Origin: a phage
DNA: 37,944 bases
Sequence record: PZ247578.1
Strand: one strand, 5' to 3'
Position 1 is the stretch's first letter. Each line of letters starts with the position of its first letter. This document shows, piece after piece, positions 401 to 34,040 of this stretch. Position numbers and translations under genes: made by a program. The notes beneath the pieces are model-generated. The model did not search any database. It was not told the origin of the DNA and saw only the letters and a list, made by a program, of their open reading frames with translations.

Positions 401-510
401 ACATCAACACGAAACAACGGTGACGACCAACACTGAAATGGTCTACCTGAAGTCCTCTGACTGAAGGGAATGCTCTTTAACAATCTGGATAAACTCTTAA
501 TGTGCGCCGA

Positions 511-586
511 CAGTGATTAACTACAGGGTCTTTGAGTCTACATCTGAGGGCCCTGACTGATAGTCACTAACAACTGAGAGGATATA
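511..586 (+). repeat. Copy 1 of an approx. 75-bp duplicated leader element ending in the Shine-Dalgarno of the Ocr-like gene; candidate RNase III processing site or early regulatory leader
   Basis: Near-identical to 1331..1402 (a few mismatches); contains the self-complementary core AGGGCCCT. Confidence 0.6.
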
Positions 587-589
587 ACT

Positions 590-1087
590 ATGGAACGTAA
601 CGCTAACGCATACTATGAGCTGCTGGCTGCAACCGTTGAGGCATTTATCGAGCGTATTCAGTACGACCACCTGACTCAAGATGATGACTACAGCGATGCG
701 CTGCATGAGGTCGTAGACGGTCAGGTCCCGCACTATTACCACGAGATTTTTACGGTGATGGCTGCTGATGGTATAGACAACGAGTTCGAAGACTCTGGGA
801 TGATACCTGAAACCAAGGACGTAACGCGTATCCTACAAGCTCGCATCTATGAGGCGCTGTATAACGATGTGTCTAATAGCTTGGATGTAGTCTGGTTTGA
901 GGATGAAGAGGCAGACGAAGAGGATGAATATTGGGTAGTTGACGCTAAAACAGGCGCAATAATTGTGCAAGCTGTAGCTCTTGAGGTCGCTACTGCATGT
1001 GCCAAGGTTAACTATGCGGCAGGTCGCCACCTGAAGGTGGAAGACATCAATGATAACGTAGTGTTCGACCCTGCGGCTGAGGACTGA
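590..1087 (+). CDS. Ocr-like DNA-mimic anti-restriction protein (gp0.3 homolog) with a C-terminal extension of about 50 aa
   Basis: The stretch [45 protein letters not shown] matches recalled T7 Ocr ([45 protein letters not shown]); acidic [10 protein letters not shown] tract; SD GAGAGGA; 165 aa versus 117 aa in T7. Confidence 0.8.
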
Positions 1088-1092
1088 GAGCG

Positions 1093-1269
1093 ATGATAAC
1101 CTACGGTTTATGCCAGCACCACGTCACCATCGCCCGACTTATGGTCAAGACCGGGCAATTAAACCACGAGGAGTCTATGCGTCTCTTGAAAGTGGTCTAC
1201 AGGAGACGCAAGCGCATACACGACAGCTTACACTCTGAGGATAACCAACAATGTACAGATAACTTATAG
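1093..1269 (+). CDS. Small hypothetical early protein (58 aa), gene 0.4-position ORF
   Basis: ATG directly after the Ocr stop with a weak SD; below the ORF-track length cutoff, translated by hand. Confidence 0.3.
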   Translation: MITYGLCQHHVTIARLMVKTGQLNHEESMRLLKVVYRRRKRIHDSLHSEDNQQCTDNL

Positions 1270-1330
1270 CAGTGAACAGGCATTCTACGATGGGTGCTAC
1301 GAGCTGATGAAGCGCGATACTTGCTAGCGA

Positions 1331-1402
1331 TAGTGATTAACTACAGGGTCTTTGAGTCTACATCTGAAGGCCCTGACTGATAGTCACTAACAACTGAGAG
1401 GA
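1331..1402 (+). repeat. Copy 2 of the approx. 75-bp duplicated leader element, directly upstream of ORF 1408..1635
   Basis: Near-identical to 511..586, including the SD. Confidence 0.6.
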
Positions 1403-1407
1403 CAGAT

Positions 1408-1635
1408 ATGAACACAATCACTGGTGCCATAACCAAAGGTTTTCGAGCAATTTTCGGTGAAACGCAAGAAGTATGCACCAATCATAAATTCGTACTTTCT
1501 TGCGTAGTAGGGGACGAGTTTGACGGATTCGATAAACTGGTGGTTTGCGACCATTGTGGACAAGAGGCTATCCAACGCTCAAACGGTAAATTTGAATTAA
1601 TAGACGATAGCCTTACAGAAGGAGACGGCGAGTAA
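1408..1635 (+). CDS. Hypothetical early protein (75 aa), Cys-rich with a possible zinc-ribbon arrangement (C..C ... CDHC)
   Basis: SD GAGAGGA; preceded by the duplicated leader; four Cys positioned like a small Zn-binding module. Confidence 0.6.
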   Translation: MNTITGAITKGFRAIFGETQEVCTNHKFVLSCVVGDEFDGFDKLVVCDHCGQEAIQRSNGKFELIDDSLTEGDGE

Positions 1636-1667
1636 CCTAGATAAACAGGAGAGAACCAAATCGTAGC

Positions 1668-1695
1668 TTGACCATAACGCTGACAGGTGGATACT
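1668..1695 (+). promoter_or_regulatory. Candidate host sigma70 promoter (TTGACC, 16-nt spacer, GATACT)
   Basis: The -10 hexamer GATACT is the one I recall for T7 A1; spacing 16 nt. Confidence 0.4.
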
Positions 1696-1705
1696 GAGTG
1701 ATAGA

Positions 1706-1736
1706 CGAGAGGTCATCGACTGATAGGTGGCCTCAA
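1706..1736 (+). ncRNA. RNase III-like hairpin (GAGGUCA ... UGGCCUC), R0.5-like position
   Basis: 7-bp stem with one G-U pair and a 13-nt loop; same AGGTCA...GGCC(T) motif as the hairpins at 5483, 12305 and 34590. Confidence 0.4.
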
Positions 1737-1767
1737 AGATTACCACTTACATTAATAGGAGTTAACT

Positions 1768-1857
1768 ATGAATATCGGTTACTGGGTGTGCTTATCTCCG
1801 GTCATCTTTCTGATAGGGTATGGGATATACGACTGTATTAAACGGAAATCACTATGA
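1768..1857 (+). CDS. Small hydrophobic early peptide (29 aa, MNIGYWVCLSPVIFLIGYGIYDCIKRKSL)
   Basis: SD TAGGAG; one predicted transmembrane-like segment; stop overlaps the next start (ATGA). Confidence 0.4.
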   Translation: MNIGYWVCLSPVIFLIGYGIYDCIKRKSL

Positions 1858-2051
1858 GTCTTGCACTATTGATAGCCATAGGCTATGGACTTATCGCCTA
1901 CGTGCTGGTGAGAGACATCAACAAGGCACGTAAAGTCTATAAATTCAACTATGTACGTCTGGGCCGCTGGACTGTACGTCAACCTAACGGACGATTCATG
2001 CGCAACTTAGCGAACGTCTGGGATATAGCAACTCTTGGGAGCAAACTGTAA
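1854..2051 (+). CDS. Hypothetical early protein (65 aa) with an N-terminal hydrophobic helix
   Basis: Translationally coupled to the ORFs on either side. Confidence 0.55.
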   Translation: MSLALLIAIGYGLIAYVLVRDINKARKVYKFNYVRLGRWTVRQPNGRFMRNLANVWDIATLGSKL

Positions 2052-2377
2052 TGAACAAGTCATACGGGATTAATCTGGTACACTCTATGGACGCAGACAT
2101 GCAAATGTTAAGCCTACTGGCTACCGGGTATCGTCACGGAACGTCAAGTCACACCGCACGTCAACAGCAGGAGCGGGACCGTGTACTACAGGCGCGACTC
2201 CGGGCAGAGGGCCATATATACGAACTGATGAGTCTGGCGTTTGGTGGACGACCGCTCACTGACGATGGTAAACTTTTAGTCTCAGGCTGGAAGGCGATAG
2301 ACCAACGGTCAGCCATCAAGCACACGACTCACGGTGACTTCAGTCATCTTCACGCTAACCCACTGATATGCAAGTAA
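2051..2377 (+). CDS. Hypothetical early protein (108 aa)
   Basis: ORF with SD GGGAG, coupled to the upstream ORF (TAATG); occupies the T7 0.6/0.7 region but is far too short to be the 0.7 kinase. Confidence 0.55.
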   Translation: MNKSYGINLVHSMDADMQMLSLLATGYRHGTSSHTARQQQERDRVLQARLRAEGHIYELMSLAFGGRPLTDDGKLLVSGWKAIDQRSAIKHTTHGDFSHLHANPLICK

Positions 2378-2382
2378 TTATG

Positions 2383-2406
2383 ACTTAACTATCACTATAG
2401 GACTCA
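2383..2406 (+). promoter_or_regulatory. Phage RNAP promoter-like sequence (TTAACTATCACTATAGGACTC) upstream of the RNA polymerase gene
   Basis: Matches the core repeated 11 times in the window; followed by an R1-like leader (GACTCAAGGTC, then two copies of TAAGTGAAAGAC). Confidence 0.6.
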
Positions 2407-2474: not shown

Positions 2475-5156
2475 ATGAGCGTCATCTCTATTGACAAACA
2501 CGACTTCTCTGATGTGTCGAACGCCATTGAGCCGTTTAACCTGCTGGCTGACCACTACGGGCAAGACCTTGCAGTCAAACAGCTTCAGCTTGAGCATGAG
2601 GCATATACAGAAGGCGAGCGACGTTTCATCAAGAACCTTGAGCGCCAGACTGAGCGCGGGGAACTGGCAGACAATCAGGTCGCCAAGCCTTTGATGCAGA
2701 CTCTGGTCCCTAAGATTGCGCAAGCCGTCAAGGAGTGGCATGAAGGTCCAGACGGGAAACTGTCAACCTCTCGTCCTAGCGTAGCGTTCACCATGTTGAG
2801 CACTGATGAGAAGGCCGTCAAGGACCGCTCTATGCGCATCTCCTGTGAGTCCGCTGCGGTTATCATACTGAAGGTCATACTCTCAAAGCTGGTAAAGCCT
2901 GAAGGGATACCGATTACACCGATGGCCTCCGCGATAGGTCGCACACTTGAGGACGAAATCCGCTTCGGTCGCATCCGTGACAAAGAGAAAGAGCACTTCA
3001 AGAAGGCGATAGCTGATAACCTGAATAAGAGGGCCGGGGCGTCATACAAGAAAGCCTACATGCAAGCGGTCGAGGCGTCCATGCTGGAGCAAGGCCAACT
3101 GGAAGATGCGTGGGGGACTTGGAGTCCTACAGAGGCTGTCCACGTTGGCATCAAGATGCTCGAGATTGTCATCCAGTCAACACAACTGGTCGAGCTTAAG
3201 CGGTACGGTGCTGGTAATGCAGCGGCTGACGTAGAGATGGTCCACCTGTCAGACTTCTGGGTCAAGAAGATGGCACAACGAGGATTCAGCCTTGCGGGTA
3301 TCGCTCCAGTCTACCAGCCTTGCGTCGTTCCACCTAAGCCGTGGACTGGTGTCGTAGGTGGTGGGTACTGGGCCAAAGGTCGCAGACCGTTACCATTGAT
3401 TCGCTTAGGGTCTAAGTCTGCGGTAGCACGTTATGAAGACGTATACATGCCTGAAGTCTATGACGCTGTGAATATCATCCAGAATACACCTTGGAAAGTG
3501 AACAAGAAGGTATTGGACGTGGTGAACACGGTCGAGAAGCTGAACAACACGCCTATTGAGGACATCCCTCAGATGGAACCGCTGAAGCCTGAGGACTATG
3601 CTGGTGAAACCGAGGAGGAACTAAAGGCATGGAAGAAGGCTGCTGCTGGTATCTATCGCCGCGAGAAGGCCAGACAGTCACGCAGATTATCACTGAGCTT
3701 TATCGTTAACCAAGCAAACAAGTTCTCTCAGTTCAAGGCCATCTGGTTCCCGTACAACATGGATTGGCGAGGTCGTGTCTACGCTGTCCCGATGTTCAAC
3801 CCTCAGGGTAACGACATGCAGAAGGGGCTCCTGACTCTGGCAGTCGGAAAGCCTATTGGTGCTGACGGTTTCAAATGGCTGAAGGTCCACGGTGCAAACT
3901 GTGCGGGTGTCGATAAAGTCACCTTCGATGAGCGCATCAAGTGGGTGGAAGACAACCACGAAAACATCATGGCTGCTGCTAAGGCACCGATGGATAGTAT
4001 TGAGTGGTGGGGCAAGTTAGACTCTCCGTTCTGCTTCCTAGCTTTCTGCTTCGAGTATGCTGGCGTAATGCACCACGGCTTGTCTTACTCCTGCTCGCTG
4101 CCGATAGCGTTCGATGGGTCCTGCTCTGGGATTCAGCACTTCAGCGCTATGCTTCGCGACCACATCGGTGGACATGCAGTAAACCTGACGCCATCCGGTA
4201 AGGTCCAAGACATCTACCGCATCGTGTCTGACCGCATTGAGGAGGAGCTTAAAGTCCTACTGGTTAACGGTACGGACAACGAGATGGTAACTCACGAGGA
4301 CAAGAAAACTGGTGAGATTACCGAGCGTCTCAAGCTGGGGACACGAGAGCTTGCCCGTCAGTGGCTGACCTACGGTATGTCACGAAAGGTCACTAAGCGT
4401 TCGGTCATGACTCTGGCCTACGGGTCGAAAGAGTACGGCTTCGCAGACCAAGTTTACGAGGACATCGTGATGCCAGCGATTGACTCAGGGTCTGGCGCTA
4501 TGTTCACTGAACCAAGCCAAGCGTCTCGCTTCATGGCAAAGATGATTTGGGAAGCTGTGAGTGTGACAGTAGTTGCTGCGGTTGACGCGATGAAGTGGCT
4601 TCAAGGTGCTGCCAAGCTGCTGGCTGCTGAGGTGAAGGACAAGAAGACTGGAGAAATCCTGAAGCCTTGCCTTCCGGTACACTGGGTCACACCTGATGGG
4701 TTCCCGGTCTGGCAGGAGTACCGCAAGAAGGATACTACTCGTCTGAACCTGATGTTCTTAGGGTCATTCAATCTTCAGCCTACCGTCAACAAAGGTACGA
4801 AGAAAGAGCTGGACAAGCACAAGCAGGAGTCAGGCATTAGCCCGAACTTCGTCCACTCACAAGATGGTAGCCACCTCCGCAAGACTGTAGTCCACACTCA
4901 CCGAAAGTATGGCGTGATGTCATTCGCAGTGATTCACGATAGCTTCGGGACCATCCCGGCTGACGCTGAGTATCTGTTCCGTGGCGTCCGTGAGACGATG
5001 GTAGAGACTTACCGCGATAACGATGTGCTGCTTGACTTCTACGAGCAGTTCGAATACCAGCTTCACGAGAGTCAGCGCGACAAGTTGCCTGAGCTTCCGA
5101 AGAAAGGTAAACTGAATATCGAGGACATCTTGTCTTCAGACTTTGCATTCGCTTAA
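2475..5156 (+). CDS. Single-subunit DNA-directed RNA polymerase (T7 gp1 homolog), 893 aa
   Basis: Catalytic motifs DGSCSGIQHFSAM and HDSFGT; length and position as in T7; ends in FAFA like T7 RNAP. Confidence 0.97.
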   Translation: MSVISIDKHDFSDVSNAIEPFNLLADHYGQDLAVKQLQLEHEAYTEGERRFIKNLERQTERGELADNQVAKPLMQTLVPKIAQAVKEWHEGPDGKLSTSRPSVAFTMLSTDEKAVKDRSMRISCESAAVIILKVILSKLVKPEGIPITPMASAIGRTLEDEIRFGRIRDKEKEHFKKAIADNLNKRAGASYKKAYMQAVEASMLEQGQLEDAWGTWSPTEAVHVGIKMLEIVIQSTQLVELKRYGAGNAAADVEMVHLSDFWVKKMAQRGFSLAGIAPVYQPCVVPPKPWTGVVGGGYWAKGRRPLPLIRLGSKSAVARYEDVYMPEVYDAVNIIQNTPWKVNKKVLDVVNTVEKLNNTPIEDIPQMEPLKPEDYAGETEEELKAWKKAAAGIYRREKARQSRRLSLSFIVNQANKFSQFKAIWFPYNMDWRGRVYAVPMFNPQGNDMQKGLLTLAVGKPIGADGFKWLKVHGANCAGVDKVTFDERIKWVEDNHENIMAAAKAPMDSIEWWGKLDSPFCFLAFCFEYAGVMHHGLSYSCSLPIAFDGSCSGIQHFSAMLRDHIGGHAVNLTPSGKVQDIYRIVSDRIEEELKVLLVNGTDNEMVTHEDKKTGEITERLKLGTRELARQWLTYGMSRKVTKRSVMTLAYGSKEYGFADQVYEDIVMPAIDSGSGAMFTEPSQASRFMAKMIWEAVSVTVVAAVDAMKWLQGAAKLLAAEVKDKKTGEILKPCLPVHWVTPDGFPVWQEYRKKDTTRLNLMFLGSFNLQPTVNKGTKKELDKHKQESGISPNFVHSQDGSHLRKTVVHTHRKYGVMSFAVIHDSFGTIPADAEYLFRGVRETMVETYRDNDVLLDFYEQFEYQLHESQRDKLPELPKKGKLNIEDILSSDFAFA

Positions 5157-7996: not shown

Positions 7997-8078
7997 GTGG
8001 TGCGAGCGTAAATTTGAGGAGACAGGTAACGTCGATTACCTTCAGCTCTACAACTTATGGAAGGAGCGTGGTCTATGA
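7983..8078 (+). CDS. Small hypothetical ORF (31 aa), gene 1.8 position
   Basis: Overlaps the gp1.7 stop and the gp2 start; hand-translated. Confidence 0.3.
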
Positions 8079-8233
8079 CTGACGTAGAGAAGAAATACAT
8101 CGTTGAGCTTGAGGGGCGCGTTCAGTCCTTCGAGGTTCCGGTGTACGCAAAGTCTCTTGAAGAGGCTACACTGAAGTCCCAAGAGTATGAGGACGCTGGG
8201 TTTGTGGTCGGACGGATTCGTCCTGAGGCCTAA
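8075..8233 (+). CDS. gp2-like inhibitor of host RNA polymerase (52 aa)
   Basis: [14 protein letters not shown]...[10 protein letters not shown] matches recalled T7 Gp2 (SFEVPIYAETLDEA...AGFEVTRVRP); SD AAGGAG; hand-translated. Confidence 0.8.
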
Positions 8234-14538: not shown

Positions 14539-14822
14539 TGGCTATTACTAAACGTATTCGTGTGAGTTTTGACCTGAAGATGGTTGTTAGCTCAAAGGAA
14601 GAAGAGACTATGTGTCGCCAACTGTCTGAGATGACTAAAGCCTACGCTGATGGAGAGAAGCTGGATGGACTTCAGTTGGCTATGGTCAAAGCAGCAATCG
14701 AGTCAGGACCTGAGTCTGCCCTCGAGATTGTCGTCAAGAAGGTCATCAAGGAGGAGCTGGTGGACGCCTTTAGTGATGACCAGTTCGGTGTGTCCAACCT
14801 GCGATTCGAGGTCAAGCAATGA
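14538..14822 (+). CDS. gp5.5-like protein (94 aa)
   Basis: N-terminus MAITKRIRVSFDL resembles recalled T7 gp5.5 (MAMTKKFKVSFDV); start overlaps the polymerase stop (TAATG). Confidence 0.6.
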   Translation: MAITKRIRVSFDLKMVVSSKEEETMCRQLSEMTKAYADGEKLDGLQLAMVKAAIESGPESALEIVVKKVIKEELVDAFSDDQFGVSNLRFEVKQ

Positions 14823-15028
14823 GTGAATACTTACGGGTCCTAGCGGCCCTTAAGTCCTGCCCTAAGACCTTCCAGTCTAACTATGTGCGCAATAACGCTG
14901 CACTTGTGGCTGAGGCTGCGAGTCGTGGACATCTAAGCTGCCTGTCTATGGATGGGCGTAACAACGGTGCGTGGGAAATTACCGCTGCTGGCACCAAGTT
15001 CCTGAACCAACACGGAGGCTGTCTATGA
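14819..15028 (+). CDS. gp5.7 homolog (69 aa)
   Basis: LKSCPKTFQSNYVRNNAALVAEAASRGH..GAWEITAAGTKFL nearly identical to recalled T7 gp5.7. Confidence 0.85.
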   Translation: MSEYLRVLAALKSCPKTFQSNYVRNNAALVAEAASRGHLSCLSMDGRNNGAWEITAAGTKFLNQHGGCL

Positions 15029-31853: not shown

Positions 31854-34040
31854 ATGTCCACGATTACACAATTCCCTTCAGGAAACACTCAGTACAGGAT
31901 AGAGTTCGATTACCTAGCCAGAACGTTTGTTGTTGTTACGCTGGTGAATAGCTCTAACCCTACCCTGAACAGTGTACTGGAAGTTGGTCGAGATTACCGA
32001 TTCCTTAACCCAACGATGATTGAGATGTTGGTTGACCAATCAGGTTTCGACATCGTTCGTATTCACCGTCAGACTGGAACTGACTTAGTGGTAGACTTCA
32101 GGAATGGCTCAGTGTTGACAGCTAGTGACCTGACCAATTCAGAGCTTCAGGCTATCCATATTGCAGAAGAAGGTCGAGACCAAACGGTTGACTTAGCGAA
32201 GGAATATGCCGATGCTGCTGGTAGCTCTGCTGGCAACGCTAAGGATAGCGAGGACGAAGCACGACGAATCGCTGAGAGTATCAAGGCATCTGGTCGAATC
32301 GGCTATATTACCCGTCGCTCCTTCGAGAAAGGCTTCAACGTTACAACATGGAACGAGGTCCTGCTATGGGAAGAGGACGGTGAGTATTACCGCTGGGATG
32401 GTGCGCTTCCAAAGAACGTTCCTGCCGGCTCAACACCTGAAGCATCTGGTGGTGTTGGCATTGGTGCATGGGTTAGTGTTGGTGATGCTTCATTGCGCAG
32501 TGATTTGACCCTAAGCACTGGCGCACGGCGAGTTGGGACAACATCCGGCAGGACCGTACAGGCAGAGCTTGATATCCTCAAAATGGGGTACAAGACGCTT
32601 GATGACTTTGGTGCAAAAGGTGACGGAAGTACAGACGACACCGCTGCCATATTCAATGCCTTTTCGTGGGCCTCAACCAACGGACTACCACTTAGAGTTC
32701 CAAGCAAACCATATGTTTGGAATGGCGACGTTATTCCATACGATAATGTGACCCTCATTGGTGATAAGCGGCCCTATGCGGATTCAGGGTTAACTCGTCT
32801 TCTTGATGGTAGTATTATCGTAGGTACGCTCAGATTTAGTGGCAAAAACATACAAATCAGCAATATTGGAGTCGATCACGGTTCGTTCCGGTTCCCGTCG
32901 ACAGCTGGTGATGCCCTCATTGTATCAGCCCCTGAAAAATCAGGGCAGTATTGCCTTATAAGAAACTGTGTTGGACTAGGGCGAAATCCAACCGATGCAT
33001 TTCACGCTATTCTGTGTGAAGGTTATAAATATTCAATTATTGAAGATTGCATCGGCATACAGAATACATATAGCATCGCGCACAAAAGTGGTTATTCAAT
33101 CACGAATAATATAATATCCATAAACTCAAACACAGGTGTTATTGTTAAATCTGATAGTGCATTTGGTGATGCCAGTTTCTGTAATATTACCAATATTACC
33201 ATTGATGGAAATGAAAACTGTAATATTGGCTTGTGGGTTTTTGCGCAAGACGCTCAACTACAGAAGGTTAATGTATCTAATATTGTAGTATCTGGATGTA
33301 AATACGACATGGTGGTGCAGGCTGATGCTGGCGTCATCAATGAAATTAACATTAACAATCTGGCAAGCTCTGGGGCATCCATAGCGTCACTAGCACTGGT
33401 GGCTAATGCCGCCGATAAGATATACACCGTAAACATATCAAACATTTCAGCTGGCGAAGTTACAGGGCAAATTATTGATGCGCAGGTAGCTAATTTGCTG
33501 AATGTATCGAATGTTACTGGGCGAATTACCAGCTCATCGACGCACGTCAGTGACTCCATAAAGATAGGGGAATTAGTTGGCGCTTCAAATCTTGTTAATG
33601 TAATTCCCACTTTGAATTACAGTTTAACATCTCAGGCTGGAGTGACTTTTAATAACGCTTTTGAAAATAACAGCATCAGTAATGTTCGCGCTGCTATATA
33701 CGGAAGCGGAGCGCCGCGACCAGGGTATGCAACACAGGGCGCAAGCGGTGTCTCTGGAGTGCTTTCGGTAAGATATAGCCAGACAAACTCGTCATTCATA
33801 AAGCTAACTCTTCCTTCAGGAGCAGCTGAGATAGCTACCATACACACAACAGCCATCAATGGCTCGGTAATACCGGAAGGATATGTATTATGGATACAAA
33901 ACGCCACCTCCGGACAAAACCTAACGATAACTCCTTCTACTGCTGGTCATATCGTTACAACCGGGAATACTCCAAAGGTGTTGGCTGGCGGTGATAAAGT
34001 TGGCTTTATGTTTGATGGTAACACATGGATTCAGATGTAA
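31854..34040 (+). CDS. Tail fibre/tailspike (gp17 homolog): T7-like N-terminal adaptor domain fused to a pectate-lyase-fold beta-helix, probable polysaccharide depolymerase
   Basis: N-terminal approx. 150 aa resemble T7 gp17 (FDYLARTFVVVTL, LVVDFRNGSVL, AEEGRD); downstream LDDFGAKGDGSTDDTAAIFNAF is the pectate-lyase/tailspike signature; many N-x-[ST]/I-rich beta-helix-like repeats; C-terminal two-thirds is AT-rich. Confidence 0.85.
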   Translation: MSTITQFPSGNTQYRIEFDYLARTFVVVTLVNSSNPTLNSVLEVGRDYRFLNPTMIEMLVDQSGFDIVRIHRQTGTDLVVDFRNGSVLTASDLTNSELQAIHIAEEGRDQTVDLAKEYADAAGSSAGNAKDSEDEARRIAESIKASGRIGYITRRSFEKGFNVTTWNEVLLWEEDGEYYRWDGALPKNVPAGSTPEASGGVGIGAWVSVGDASLRSDLTLSTGARRVGTTSGRTVQAELDILKMGYKTLDDFGAKGDGSTDDTAAIFNAFSWASTNGLPLRVPSKPYVWNGDVIPYDNVTLIGDKRPYADSGLTRLLDGSIIVGTLRFSGKNIQISNIGVDHGSFRFPSTAGDALIVSAPEKSGQYCLIRNCVGLGRNPTDAFHAILCEGYKYSIIEDCIGIQNTYSIAHKSGYSITNNIISINSNTGVIVKSDSAFGDASFCNITNITIDGNENCNIGLWVFAQDAQLQKVNVSNIVVSGCKYDMVVQADAGVINEININNLASSGASIASLALVANAADKIYTVNISNISAGEVTGQIIDAQVANLLNVSNVTGRITSSSTHVSDSIKIGELVGASNLVNVIPTLNYSLTSQAGVTFNNAFENNSISNVRAAIYGSGAPRPGYATQGASGVSGVLSVRYSQTNSSFIKLTLPSGAAEIATIHTTAINGSVIPEGYVLWIQNATSGQNLTITPSTAGHIVTTGNTPKVLAGGDKVGFMFDGNTWIQM

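Follow-up and report, generated by a model that had tools for sequence, protein, structure and literature searches.

The early region between ocr and gene 1 of a K1F-type phage is best explained as a Kayfunavirus accessory gene block of three hairpin-bounded units

The early region of a phage genome was analyzed between its Ocr-like gene and its RNA polymerase (RNAP) gene, at positions 1093–2377 of sequence record PZ247578.1. The whole 37,944 nt of DNA that were analyzed are referred to here as the window. This region contains a string of small open reading frames (ORFs), which the initial annotation had described as a set of genes present instead of the T7 0.7 kinase. Taken as a whole, the region is very probably a standard Kayfunavirus early accessory block, arranged in three hairpin-bounded units and formed without any swap of genes for the kinase. 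On the left it is bounded by the 165-aa Ocr-like anti-restriction gene (590..1087, plus strand, as are the early genes, leaders, cassette and promoter core described below), whose product matched Pfam PF08684 (E 7.4e-29) and phrog_2568 (E 7.5e-53) and was 61% identical to T7 gp0.3. The RNAP gene (gene 1; 2475–5156) forms the right boundary. All the ORFs that had been named between these two genes were recovered at their positions.

Bases 1–2480 were 95.9% identical to Kayfunavirus LI10P1 with 100% of the query covered, and at least 80% of this segment was covered by 33 phage records. Downstream of the early region, tblastn recovered T7 homologs from gene 1 to gene 19.5 in T7 order. By these similarities, the window is assigned to the K1F-type (Kayfunavirus) members of the T7 group. 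The same string of small "hypothetical" ORFs from ocr to gene 1 was found in annotated relatives and in K1F, and these ORFs are annotated as hypothetical across many phage records. The layout of 1093–2377 is not new and corresponds to the known Kayfunavirus early region. The gene order was the same in K1F (NC_007456 / AM084414), LM33_P1, and EcoDS1, i.e., ocr, a gp0.4-like ORF, a variable slot, the 65-aa gene, a gene of the 108-aa family, a phage promoter, and gene 1, without gp0.7. In K1F, the 65-aa gene is named "gene 0.6/gp0.37" and the 108-aa family "gp0.38", and the flanking DNA is 84–98% identical to that of the window. The two regions differ in that a cassette with a 75-aa gene is present in the window and absent from K1F, whereas K1F has an 84-aa cassette between two leader copies upstream of ocr, which the window lacks. 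In addition, the window has a 29-aa peptide where K1F carries a 55-aa membrane ORF. For the comparisons below, homologous DNA of each ORF was taken from a set of 27 related loci (L-numbered).

When T7 gp0.7 was used as a query against the whole 37.9-kb window, tblastn gave no match at E ≤ 1e-3 (best E 0.69), and the small ORFs showed no resemblance to the kinase or the shut-off domain. The absence of anything gp0.7-like from the early region, as had been proposed, was thus confirmed. The same query detected kinases in 7/27 related loci (L012, L014, L019–L022, and L029; E 1e-29 to 1e-36), of which the one at 1516–2250 of L014 belongs to Shigella phage SFPH2. The gp0.7-type kinase of these relatives is 244 aa long and ends where the shut-off domain of T7 gp0.7 begins; full-length T7 and T3 gp0.7 queries on the related loci matched only residues of the kinase domain. 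Approximately 47 phage records contain a kinase at least 60% identical to the 244-aa form. This short kinase is located in the variable slot between the gp0.4-like and 29-aa genes, which holds different genes in different relatives; the 65- and 108-aa genes lie downstream of it, as does the 29-aa gene if a locus has one. The kinase-bearing loci have a SAMase-family gene (phrog_2226) in place of Ocr, and no gp0.4-like gene was found in the flank examined. Because the 244-aa kinase occupies the variable slot in 7 of the 27 relatives, it counts as accessory here, and the window falls within the kinase-less majority of the clade. The description of the small ORFs as present "instead of" the kinase is therefore correct insofar as the kinase is lacking compared to T7, but it does not denote a replacement event. 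No gene would have been swapped for the kinase; rather, the short kinase would be one alternative occupant of the variable slot. With T7/T3 gp0.7 (phrog_2828), the window shares only the neighbourhood, between the 0.4–0.6 genes and gene 1. Homologs of gp2 and gp5.7 were detected by tblastn at 8072–8224 and 14819–15025, respectively. A passage in PMC5569994 describes both proteins as inhibitors of host RNA polymerase in T7, and host transcription shut-off would be covered by these retained homologs.

The division of the block follows three RNase III-type hairpins. The first (512–568; −22.9 kcal/mol, z −3.0 compared to shuffled sequences) lies in the ocr leader (508..582), together with a GAGAGGA ribosome-binding site. 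The second (1331–1389; −24.5 kcal/mol, z −4.4) belongs to the leader of the cassette with the 75-aa gene. The third (1695–1749; −19.8 kcal/mol, z −3.5) is located, with an AGGAG ribosome-binding site, in the leader of the 29-65-108 unit (1690..1767). In 20 related loci, its conservation was 92–99%, and the ORF that follows it there is of the membrane type and 29, 34, or 55 aa long. All three hairpins could be aligned with the T3 sites annotated as R0.3/R0.5 and with the equivalent parts of T7, and the consensus with these sites contained 16 pairs, 7 of them with compensatory changes. The hairpins are of the T3/T7 RNase III-site type in structure and similarity, and by analogy with these sites they would be cleaved. 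They probably split the early transcript into three units. Unit 1 would comprise ocr together with the gp0.4 homolog of 58 aa. Unit 2 would carry a single gene, that of 75 aa, and unit 3 the 29-, 65-, and 108-aa genes with their overlapping stop and start codons.

Across the relatives, an ocr-type leader precedes nine different genes (Ocr and eight others), and the leader-borne genes include Ocr and the 84-, 58-, 174-, 67-, 92-, 150-, and 75-aa ORFs. The leader matches were 96–100% identical over 20–75 nt, with up to three copies per genome. Their boundaries suggest that the leaders are homology patches for the exchange of early genes. Promoter-early stem-loops (PeSL) are mobile regulatory cassettes of T4-type phages. 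The leaders resemble them as short conserved stem-loop elements at variable early-gene junctions that could be homology patches for shuffling. In contrast to a PeSL, which consists of a promoter and a terminator-like stem-loop, the element in the window consists of an RNase III-type hairpin and a ribosome-binding site, and we infer recombination at it from the boundaries.

The coding capacity of the small ORFs was assessed by the Nei-Gojobori ratio of nonsynonymous to synonymous differences (pN/pS), which was determined in all three frames with 8–15 distinct relatives per ORF. In the annotated frame, the controls gave 0.35 (Ocr) and 0.10 (RNAP N-terminus). The corresponding values were 0.41 for the 58-aa ORF, 0.22 for the 29-aa ORF (12 distinct sequences), 0.20 for the 65-aa ORF, and 0.24 for the 108-aa ORF, whereas the other two frames of these four ORFs gave roughly 0.9 to 2.8. 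Close relatives of the 75-aa ORF were too few for the three-frame comparison, and distant homologs were used, which gave 0.23–0.32 at a synonymous divergence of 0.5–0.85. The five small ORFs of 58, 75, 29, 65, and 108 aa are under purifying selection. As this selection is specific to the annotated frame, these ORFs are real genes. A Shine-Dalgarno-like motif was present at the 58-, 75-, 29-, and 108-aa ORFs and was weak at the 65-aa ORF.

The first of these genes, the 58-aa ORF (1093..1269), was left undescribed in the initial annotation. It encodes a basic protein and begins 6 nt past the ocr stop codon. Its position directly after ocr is that of T7 gene 0.4, which starts at the stop of gene 0.3. 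The 58-aa protein was 34% identical to T7 gp0.4 across 41 residues, and each of the two proteins matched the PHROG of the other weakly. When 25 members of the 58-aa family were compared by hhalign with seven members of the T7 gp0.4 family, a probability of 96.4% was obtained (E 1.4e-9). When the window was split into 791 six-frame segments, a hidden Markov model (HMM) of the gp0.4 family matched only the 58-aa ORF (E 3.7e-7, next 1.2). In the reciprocal search, the HMM of the 58-aa family matched gene 0.4 alone among 817 T7 segments (E 9.6e-4, next 0.69). The Pfam family PF26807 (Phage_T7_GP04) was present on 54/54 database homologs of the 58-aa ORF; this assignment comes from precomputed annotation, as the PF26807 model is not in the local Pfam copy. 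On these matches, the 58-aa ORF is assigned to the T7 gp0.4 family (PF26807) as a diverged homolog. T7 gp0.4 is likewise a small protein of ~50 aa, and the two share the motif YGL..(9)..MV..G......M..LK..Y...K, whereas a C-Q-H-H stretch that is invariant in the K1F-type branch and the basic tail of this branch do not occur in T7 gp0.4. The initial annotation had considered homology to the T7 0.4–0.6 proteins as contradicting its view of the block. Such homology was found for one gene, the 58-aa ORF.

T7 gp0.4 is an inhibitor of FtsZ (PMC9372555, citing Kiro et al. 2013). As its homolog, the 58-aa protein would most likely bind FtsZ and block host division in the same way. This role is consistent with the study of Dhanoa et al. 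2022, where K1F infection mislocalised FtsZ and the responsible peptide was left unidentified (PMC9372555). The same study states that K1F "lacks the 0.4 genes" (PMC9372555). The K1F homolog is a 49-aa ORF at 1623–1772 (YP_338091.1 is the name given for it), which is also a member of the 58-aa/gp0.4 family.

Unit 2 is a recent 336-bp insertion (1328..1663), in which a copy of the ocr leader is fused to a gene that otherwise occurs in unrelated phages. The cassette leader (1328–1402) is a 97%-identical 75-nt direct repeat of 508–582, and the 75-aa gene follows at 1408..1635. The cassette was present in only 2/27 related loci, L001 (vB_EcoP-101120B2) and L002 (LM33_P1). EPr2, L010, and L015 were colinear with the window up to 1326 and again from 1664, with ~15 nt in place of the insert. 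Both sides of the cassette are flanked by the remains of a 41-aa gene (MYQITYSSEQAFYDGCYEMMKRGACYVANHHSLTITLTGGY), which is intact in at least eight relatives. Its 5′ remnant (1251..1327) was delimited by alignment with seven relatives and by the break of blastn colinearity at 1326/1327, and its 3′ remnant (1664..1697) by alignment with relatives. In the window, the 41-aa gene is frameshifted by a 1-nt deletion and split by the cassette, the insertion of which, along with the deletion, destroyed this resident gene. The 75-aa protein was represented by only five 90%-identity clusters in 5.8 billion proteins. Its homologs of 71–74% identity are encoded in ~43-kb phage contigs of a different kind, which carry AAA_25, DUF551, DUF2737, HNH_3, and lysozyme genes, and the DNA similarity between the window and these contigs is limited to the 75-aa ORF. 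This distribution identifies the 75-aa gene as foreign and horizontally transferred, as judged from sequence.

In the six known sequences of the 75-aa protein, residues C23, H26, C32, C47, and C50 are invariant and provide two knuckles, C23-x2-H26 and C47-x2-C50. An AlphaFold2 model contained four β strands, with strands after the CxxH and CxxC knuckles (28–34 and 53–56), at a predicted local distance difference test score (pLDDT) of only 57. The best Pfam score was that of ADK_lid, which was below the threshold (E 0.034). The earlier description "zinc-ribbon-like" is plausible in view of the invariant CxxH/CxxC pairs and the low-confidence β-rich model. The product is probably a small metal-binding protein, possibly a zinc-binding β protein, and a host protein as its target is a guess.

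An alternative that we consider possible, albeit tentatively, is that the variable genes, above all the 75-aa cassette, act against specific immune systems of the host and not in general takeover. The cassette lies beside ocr with a copy of the ocr leader and is thus expected to be expressed at the same time and level. Counter-defence genes typically show a patchy distribution shaped by horizontal transfer, and so does the 75-aa gene, of which unrelated phages carry homologs. Its product is acidic (isoelectric point, pI, 4.5). Furthermore, genes known to counter host defences are among those that can fill the early slots; these are Ocr, the SAMase family, and the gp0.7-type kinase (PMC13645617). 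However, the 75-aa protein showed no similarity to a named protein, a Pfam or NCBIfam family, or a solved structure, and no defence system is implicated. The anti-defence explanation argues by association only and can hold alongside the accessory-block explanation.

Unit 3 starts with the 29-aa gene (1768..1857), which is preceded by AGGAG 7 nt upstream and was found in 17/27 relatives. It encodes a membrane peptide with one hydrophobic helix (residues 8–24, Kyte-Doolittle 1.66) and a C-terminal KRK. Its TGA stop codon overlaps the start of the 65-aa gene (ATGA, 1854–1857), and the TAA stop codon of the 65-aa gene overlaps the ATG of the 108-aa gene (TAATG). The 65-aa gene (1854..2051) encodes a very basic protein (pI 11) with an N-terminal membrane anchor (residues 3–19, Kyte-Doolittle 2.52). 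In BLASTP, this protein was 41% identical to T3 gp0.6 (E 2e-10; both proteins are 65 aa long), and phrog_2385 was matched by both the 65-aa protein (E 1.7e-32) and T3 gp0.6 (E 9e-30). The 65-aa protein is accordingly classified by similarity as a member of the T3 gp0.6 family, which is annotated as "unknown" (PMC4283147). Like the 65-aa protein, gp0.6 of T3 and phiYeO3-12 has an N-terminal transmembrane helix and a basic C-terminal part. The T3 gene also lies between an R0.5-type site and the gene that precedes gene 1, but its downstream neighbours in T3 are gp0.65 and the full-length kinase, whereas in the window the 108-aa gene comes next. BLASTP revealed no relationship of the 65-aa protein to T7 gp0.6. 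A 198-nt ORF in the same position upstream of the kinase was found in four further Studiervirinae records from different genera, as matched by position and length. The 65-aa gene itself was present in 223 phage records, mostly with >80% identity.

The 29- and 65-aa ORFs were also considered as counterparts of T7 gp0.5 and gp0.6A. This assignment was rejected, as there was no BLASTP alignment at E ≤ 100, the proteins belong to different PHROGs, and tblastn gave no match in the region. T7 gp0.5 and the 29-aa peptide have only their position and membrane character in common.

The two small membrane peptides that had been described in this region were retained in part. The free-standing 29-aa peptide is real, whereas the overlapping 47-aa GTG ORF (1698..1841; phrog_36394) is non-coding. 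For the latter, its own frame gave a pN/pS of 1.20, compared to 0.25 for the +1 frame used by the 29-aa gene. The conserved 5′ half of the 47-aa ORF is the hairpin sequence. The second membrane helix of the region is instead the N-terminus of the 65-aa protein.

The 108-aa gene (2051..2377; phrog_7066, gp0.38 in EcoDS1) was present in 224 phage records. Its product is a basic protein (pI 9.3) with a variable N-terminus, whereas the C-terminal 40 residues are nearly invariant (..TDDGKLLVSGWKAIDQRS.IKHTT.GDFSHLHANPLICK). The AlphaFold2 model was all-helical, with a pLDDT of 56. The 108-aa protein had no relative in T7, the Protein Data Bank (PDB), Pfam, or NCBIfam, and none of its 144 word-indexed homologs had a Pfam domain or a functional name. 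A deep profile search with the family yielded 14 clusters in 1.84 billion representatives, which were small unnamed proteins and one low-complexity match. PDB sequence searches with the 75- and 108-aa proteins were empty or returned only matches with E above 0.4. As a homolog of T3 gp0.65, the 108-aa protein was rejected (hhalign 0.6%). For the small ORFs in general, the local Pfam copy, which did not include the PF26807 model, and NCBIfam returned nothing.

The 65- and 108-aa genes occurred together in nearly all 27 relatives, and the 29-65-108 trio immediately precedes the RNAP gene in the majority of these loci. The trio is the conserved core of the block; a membrane-associated complex that acts on the host envelope or on membrane-linked defence is a guess. 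The initial annotation had called the early set the least predictable part of the genome. Within these genomes, mosaicism is greatest in this region, but "least predictable" fits only the 75-aa cassette and is otherwise overstated, because the 65- and 108-aa genes occur in ~220 phage records and the trio is mostly found next to the RNAP gene.

In some relatives, a 140–144-aa ORF of the endonuclease VII/HNH type (phrog_2633, E 6e-42) lies between the 65- and 108-aa genes. It was found in L009 (2176–2598), L020, L021, and L022 and looks like a homing endonuclease.

A more far-reaching explanation seems to us rather unlikely. The leader of hairpin and ribosome-binding site would be a portable module for recombination and expression that captures foreign early genes, with the 75-aa protein as a new counter-defence or takeover factor. 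Separately, the 29-, 65-, and 108-aa proteins would form a membrane-anchored module, possibly one that does the shut-off job of gp0.7.

It is more doubtful still that the 108-aa protein, alone or with the 65-aa protein, stands in for the C-terminal, DNA-binding shut-off domain of gp0.7, and we regard this as quite improbable. The 108-aa protein is basic, and its gene has the position of gp0.7 just ahead of gene 1. For the shut-off domain, toxicity, inhibition of transcription, and DNA binding have been reported (PMC13645617). The two distributions are complementary: 27/27 relatives have the 108-aa family and 0/27 the shut-off domain, the seven 244-aa kinases end before this domain, and T7 has the domain but no relative of the 108-aa protein. 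This pattern may, however, just reflect clade membership. A sequence relationship between the 108-aa protein and gp0.7 or its shut-off domain was rejected (BLASTP E 0.14–0.45; hhalign 0.2% with T7 gp0.7 and 0.4% with six shut-off domains), and the model of the 108-aa protein contained no DNA-binding fold. Finally, the view that some or all of the small ORFs are unexpressed frames that stay open by chance within a regulatory leader is effectively refuted: they are short (29–108 aa) and without Pfam domains in the local scan, and at least one spurious ORF here (1698–1841) nevertheless has a PHROG family, but pN/pS was 0.20–0.41 in the annotated frame of four ORFs compared to ~0.9 or higher in the others (and 0.23–0.32 for the 75-aa ORF), four ORFs have Shine-Dalgarno-like motifs and the 65-aa ORF a weak one together with the ATGA overlap with the 29-aa gene, and the proteins are conserved in hundreds of phage genomes.

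Several observations weigh against the explanation of the region as an accessory block of three units with the functions proposed above. All functions beyond sequence homology are inferred. No Rfam family matched the hairpins. At the right boundary of the cassette no repeat was seen, which leaves the insertion mechanism half explained. With only 34% identity to T7 gp0.4 over 41 residues, the target of the 58-aa protein could have changed. Neither fold nor sequence matches supported a zinc ribbon or any other assignment of the 75-aa protein, and Foldseek searches of BFVD with the models of the 108- and 75-aa proteins (pLDDT 56–57) returned only their own families. No independent support was found for any activity of the 29-65-108 trio. 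The proposal that the early proteins form a host-takeover repertoire is supported in part, in that one member is homologous to the proven takeover factor T7 gp0.4.

The core of a phage-RNAP promoter, ACTATCACTATAGGA, was located at 2388..2402, 11 nt past the stop codon of the 108-aa gene and 73 nt before gene 1. Genome-wide, this pattern had 11 matches on the plus strand compared to 1.2 expected, and K1F and another 17 related loci also have the site at 2388–2402. The pattern was not found in T7 or T3. T7 and T3 polymerases recognise different promoter sequences. A promoter directly upstream of the RNAP gene would let the polymerase boost its own synthesis. In a scan for the same pattern, no phage-type promoter was found in 1–2387, so this region is probably read by host RNA polymerase. 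In line with the T7/T3 paradigm, host RNA polymerase would probably transcribe the early block from promoters at the left end. A scan of 1–2600 for sigma-70 promoters and terminators gave 3 sites compared to 4.1 expected in shuffled sequences, and no terminators.

Further features were observed around the early block and elsewhere in the window. Short sequences are directly repeated in the leader of gene 1 (2401–2457; AGACTCCAAGTGAAAGACCAA / AGACTTTAAGTGAAAGACTAA), and positions 133–149 hold a related copy. The stretch at 2401–2457 folds only weakly (z −1.3) and may be a degenerate R1 RNase III site. At the left end (positions 1–75), a 15-nt unit (ACCTACAGTCCTACA) is repeated in tandem four and a half times. 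T7-group genomes typically have a repeat array at their termini or concatemer junctions, to which these copies probably belong. In the whole window, tblastn gave no match at E ≤ 1e-3 for T7 gp1.1, 1.2, 4.3, 4.5, 4.7, 5.3, 5.5, 5.9, 7, and 7.7. The similarity to gp17 in tblastn was confined to its N-terminus (31869–32192), which suggests a different receptor-binding part.

A recent study presents the gp0.7 kinase as an anti-defence weapon of broad effect (PMC13645617). In K1F-type phages, an early region without a kinase is the normal case, and this weapon is hence an accessory there, being one occupant of a variable slot in the clade. The analysis also shows that the 75-aa gene is of foreign origin and forms a cassette. 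It removes one false ORF: annotation pipelines carry at least one false gene in this region (the 47-aa GTG ORF) and often miss the 29-aa gene. The 65- and 108-aa genes each occur in ~220 phage records, and phages of the K1F type are widely investigated for use in therapy. For K1F itself, the analysis adds a candidate for its FtsZ-targeting factor. Since the 49-aa ORF directly after ocr is a homolog of gp0.4, it is the obvious candidate for this factor.

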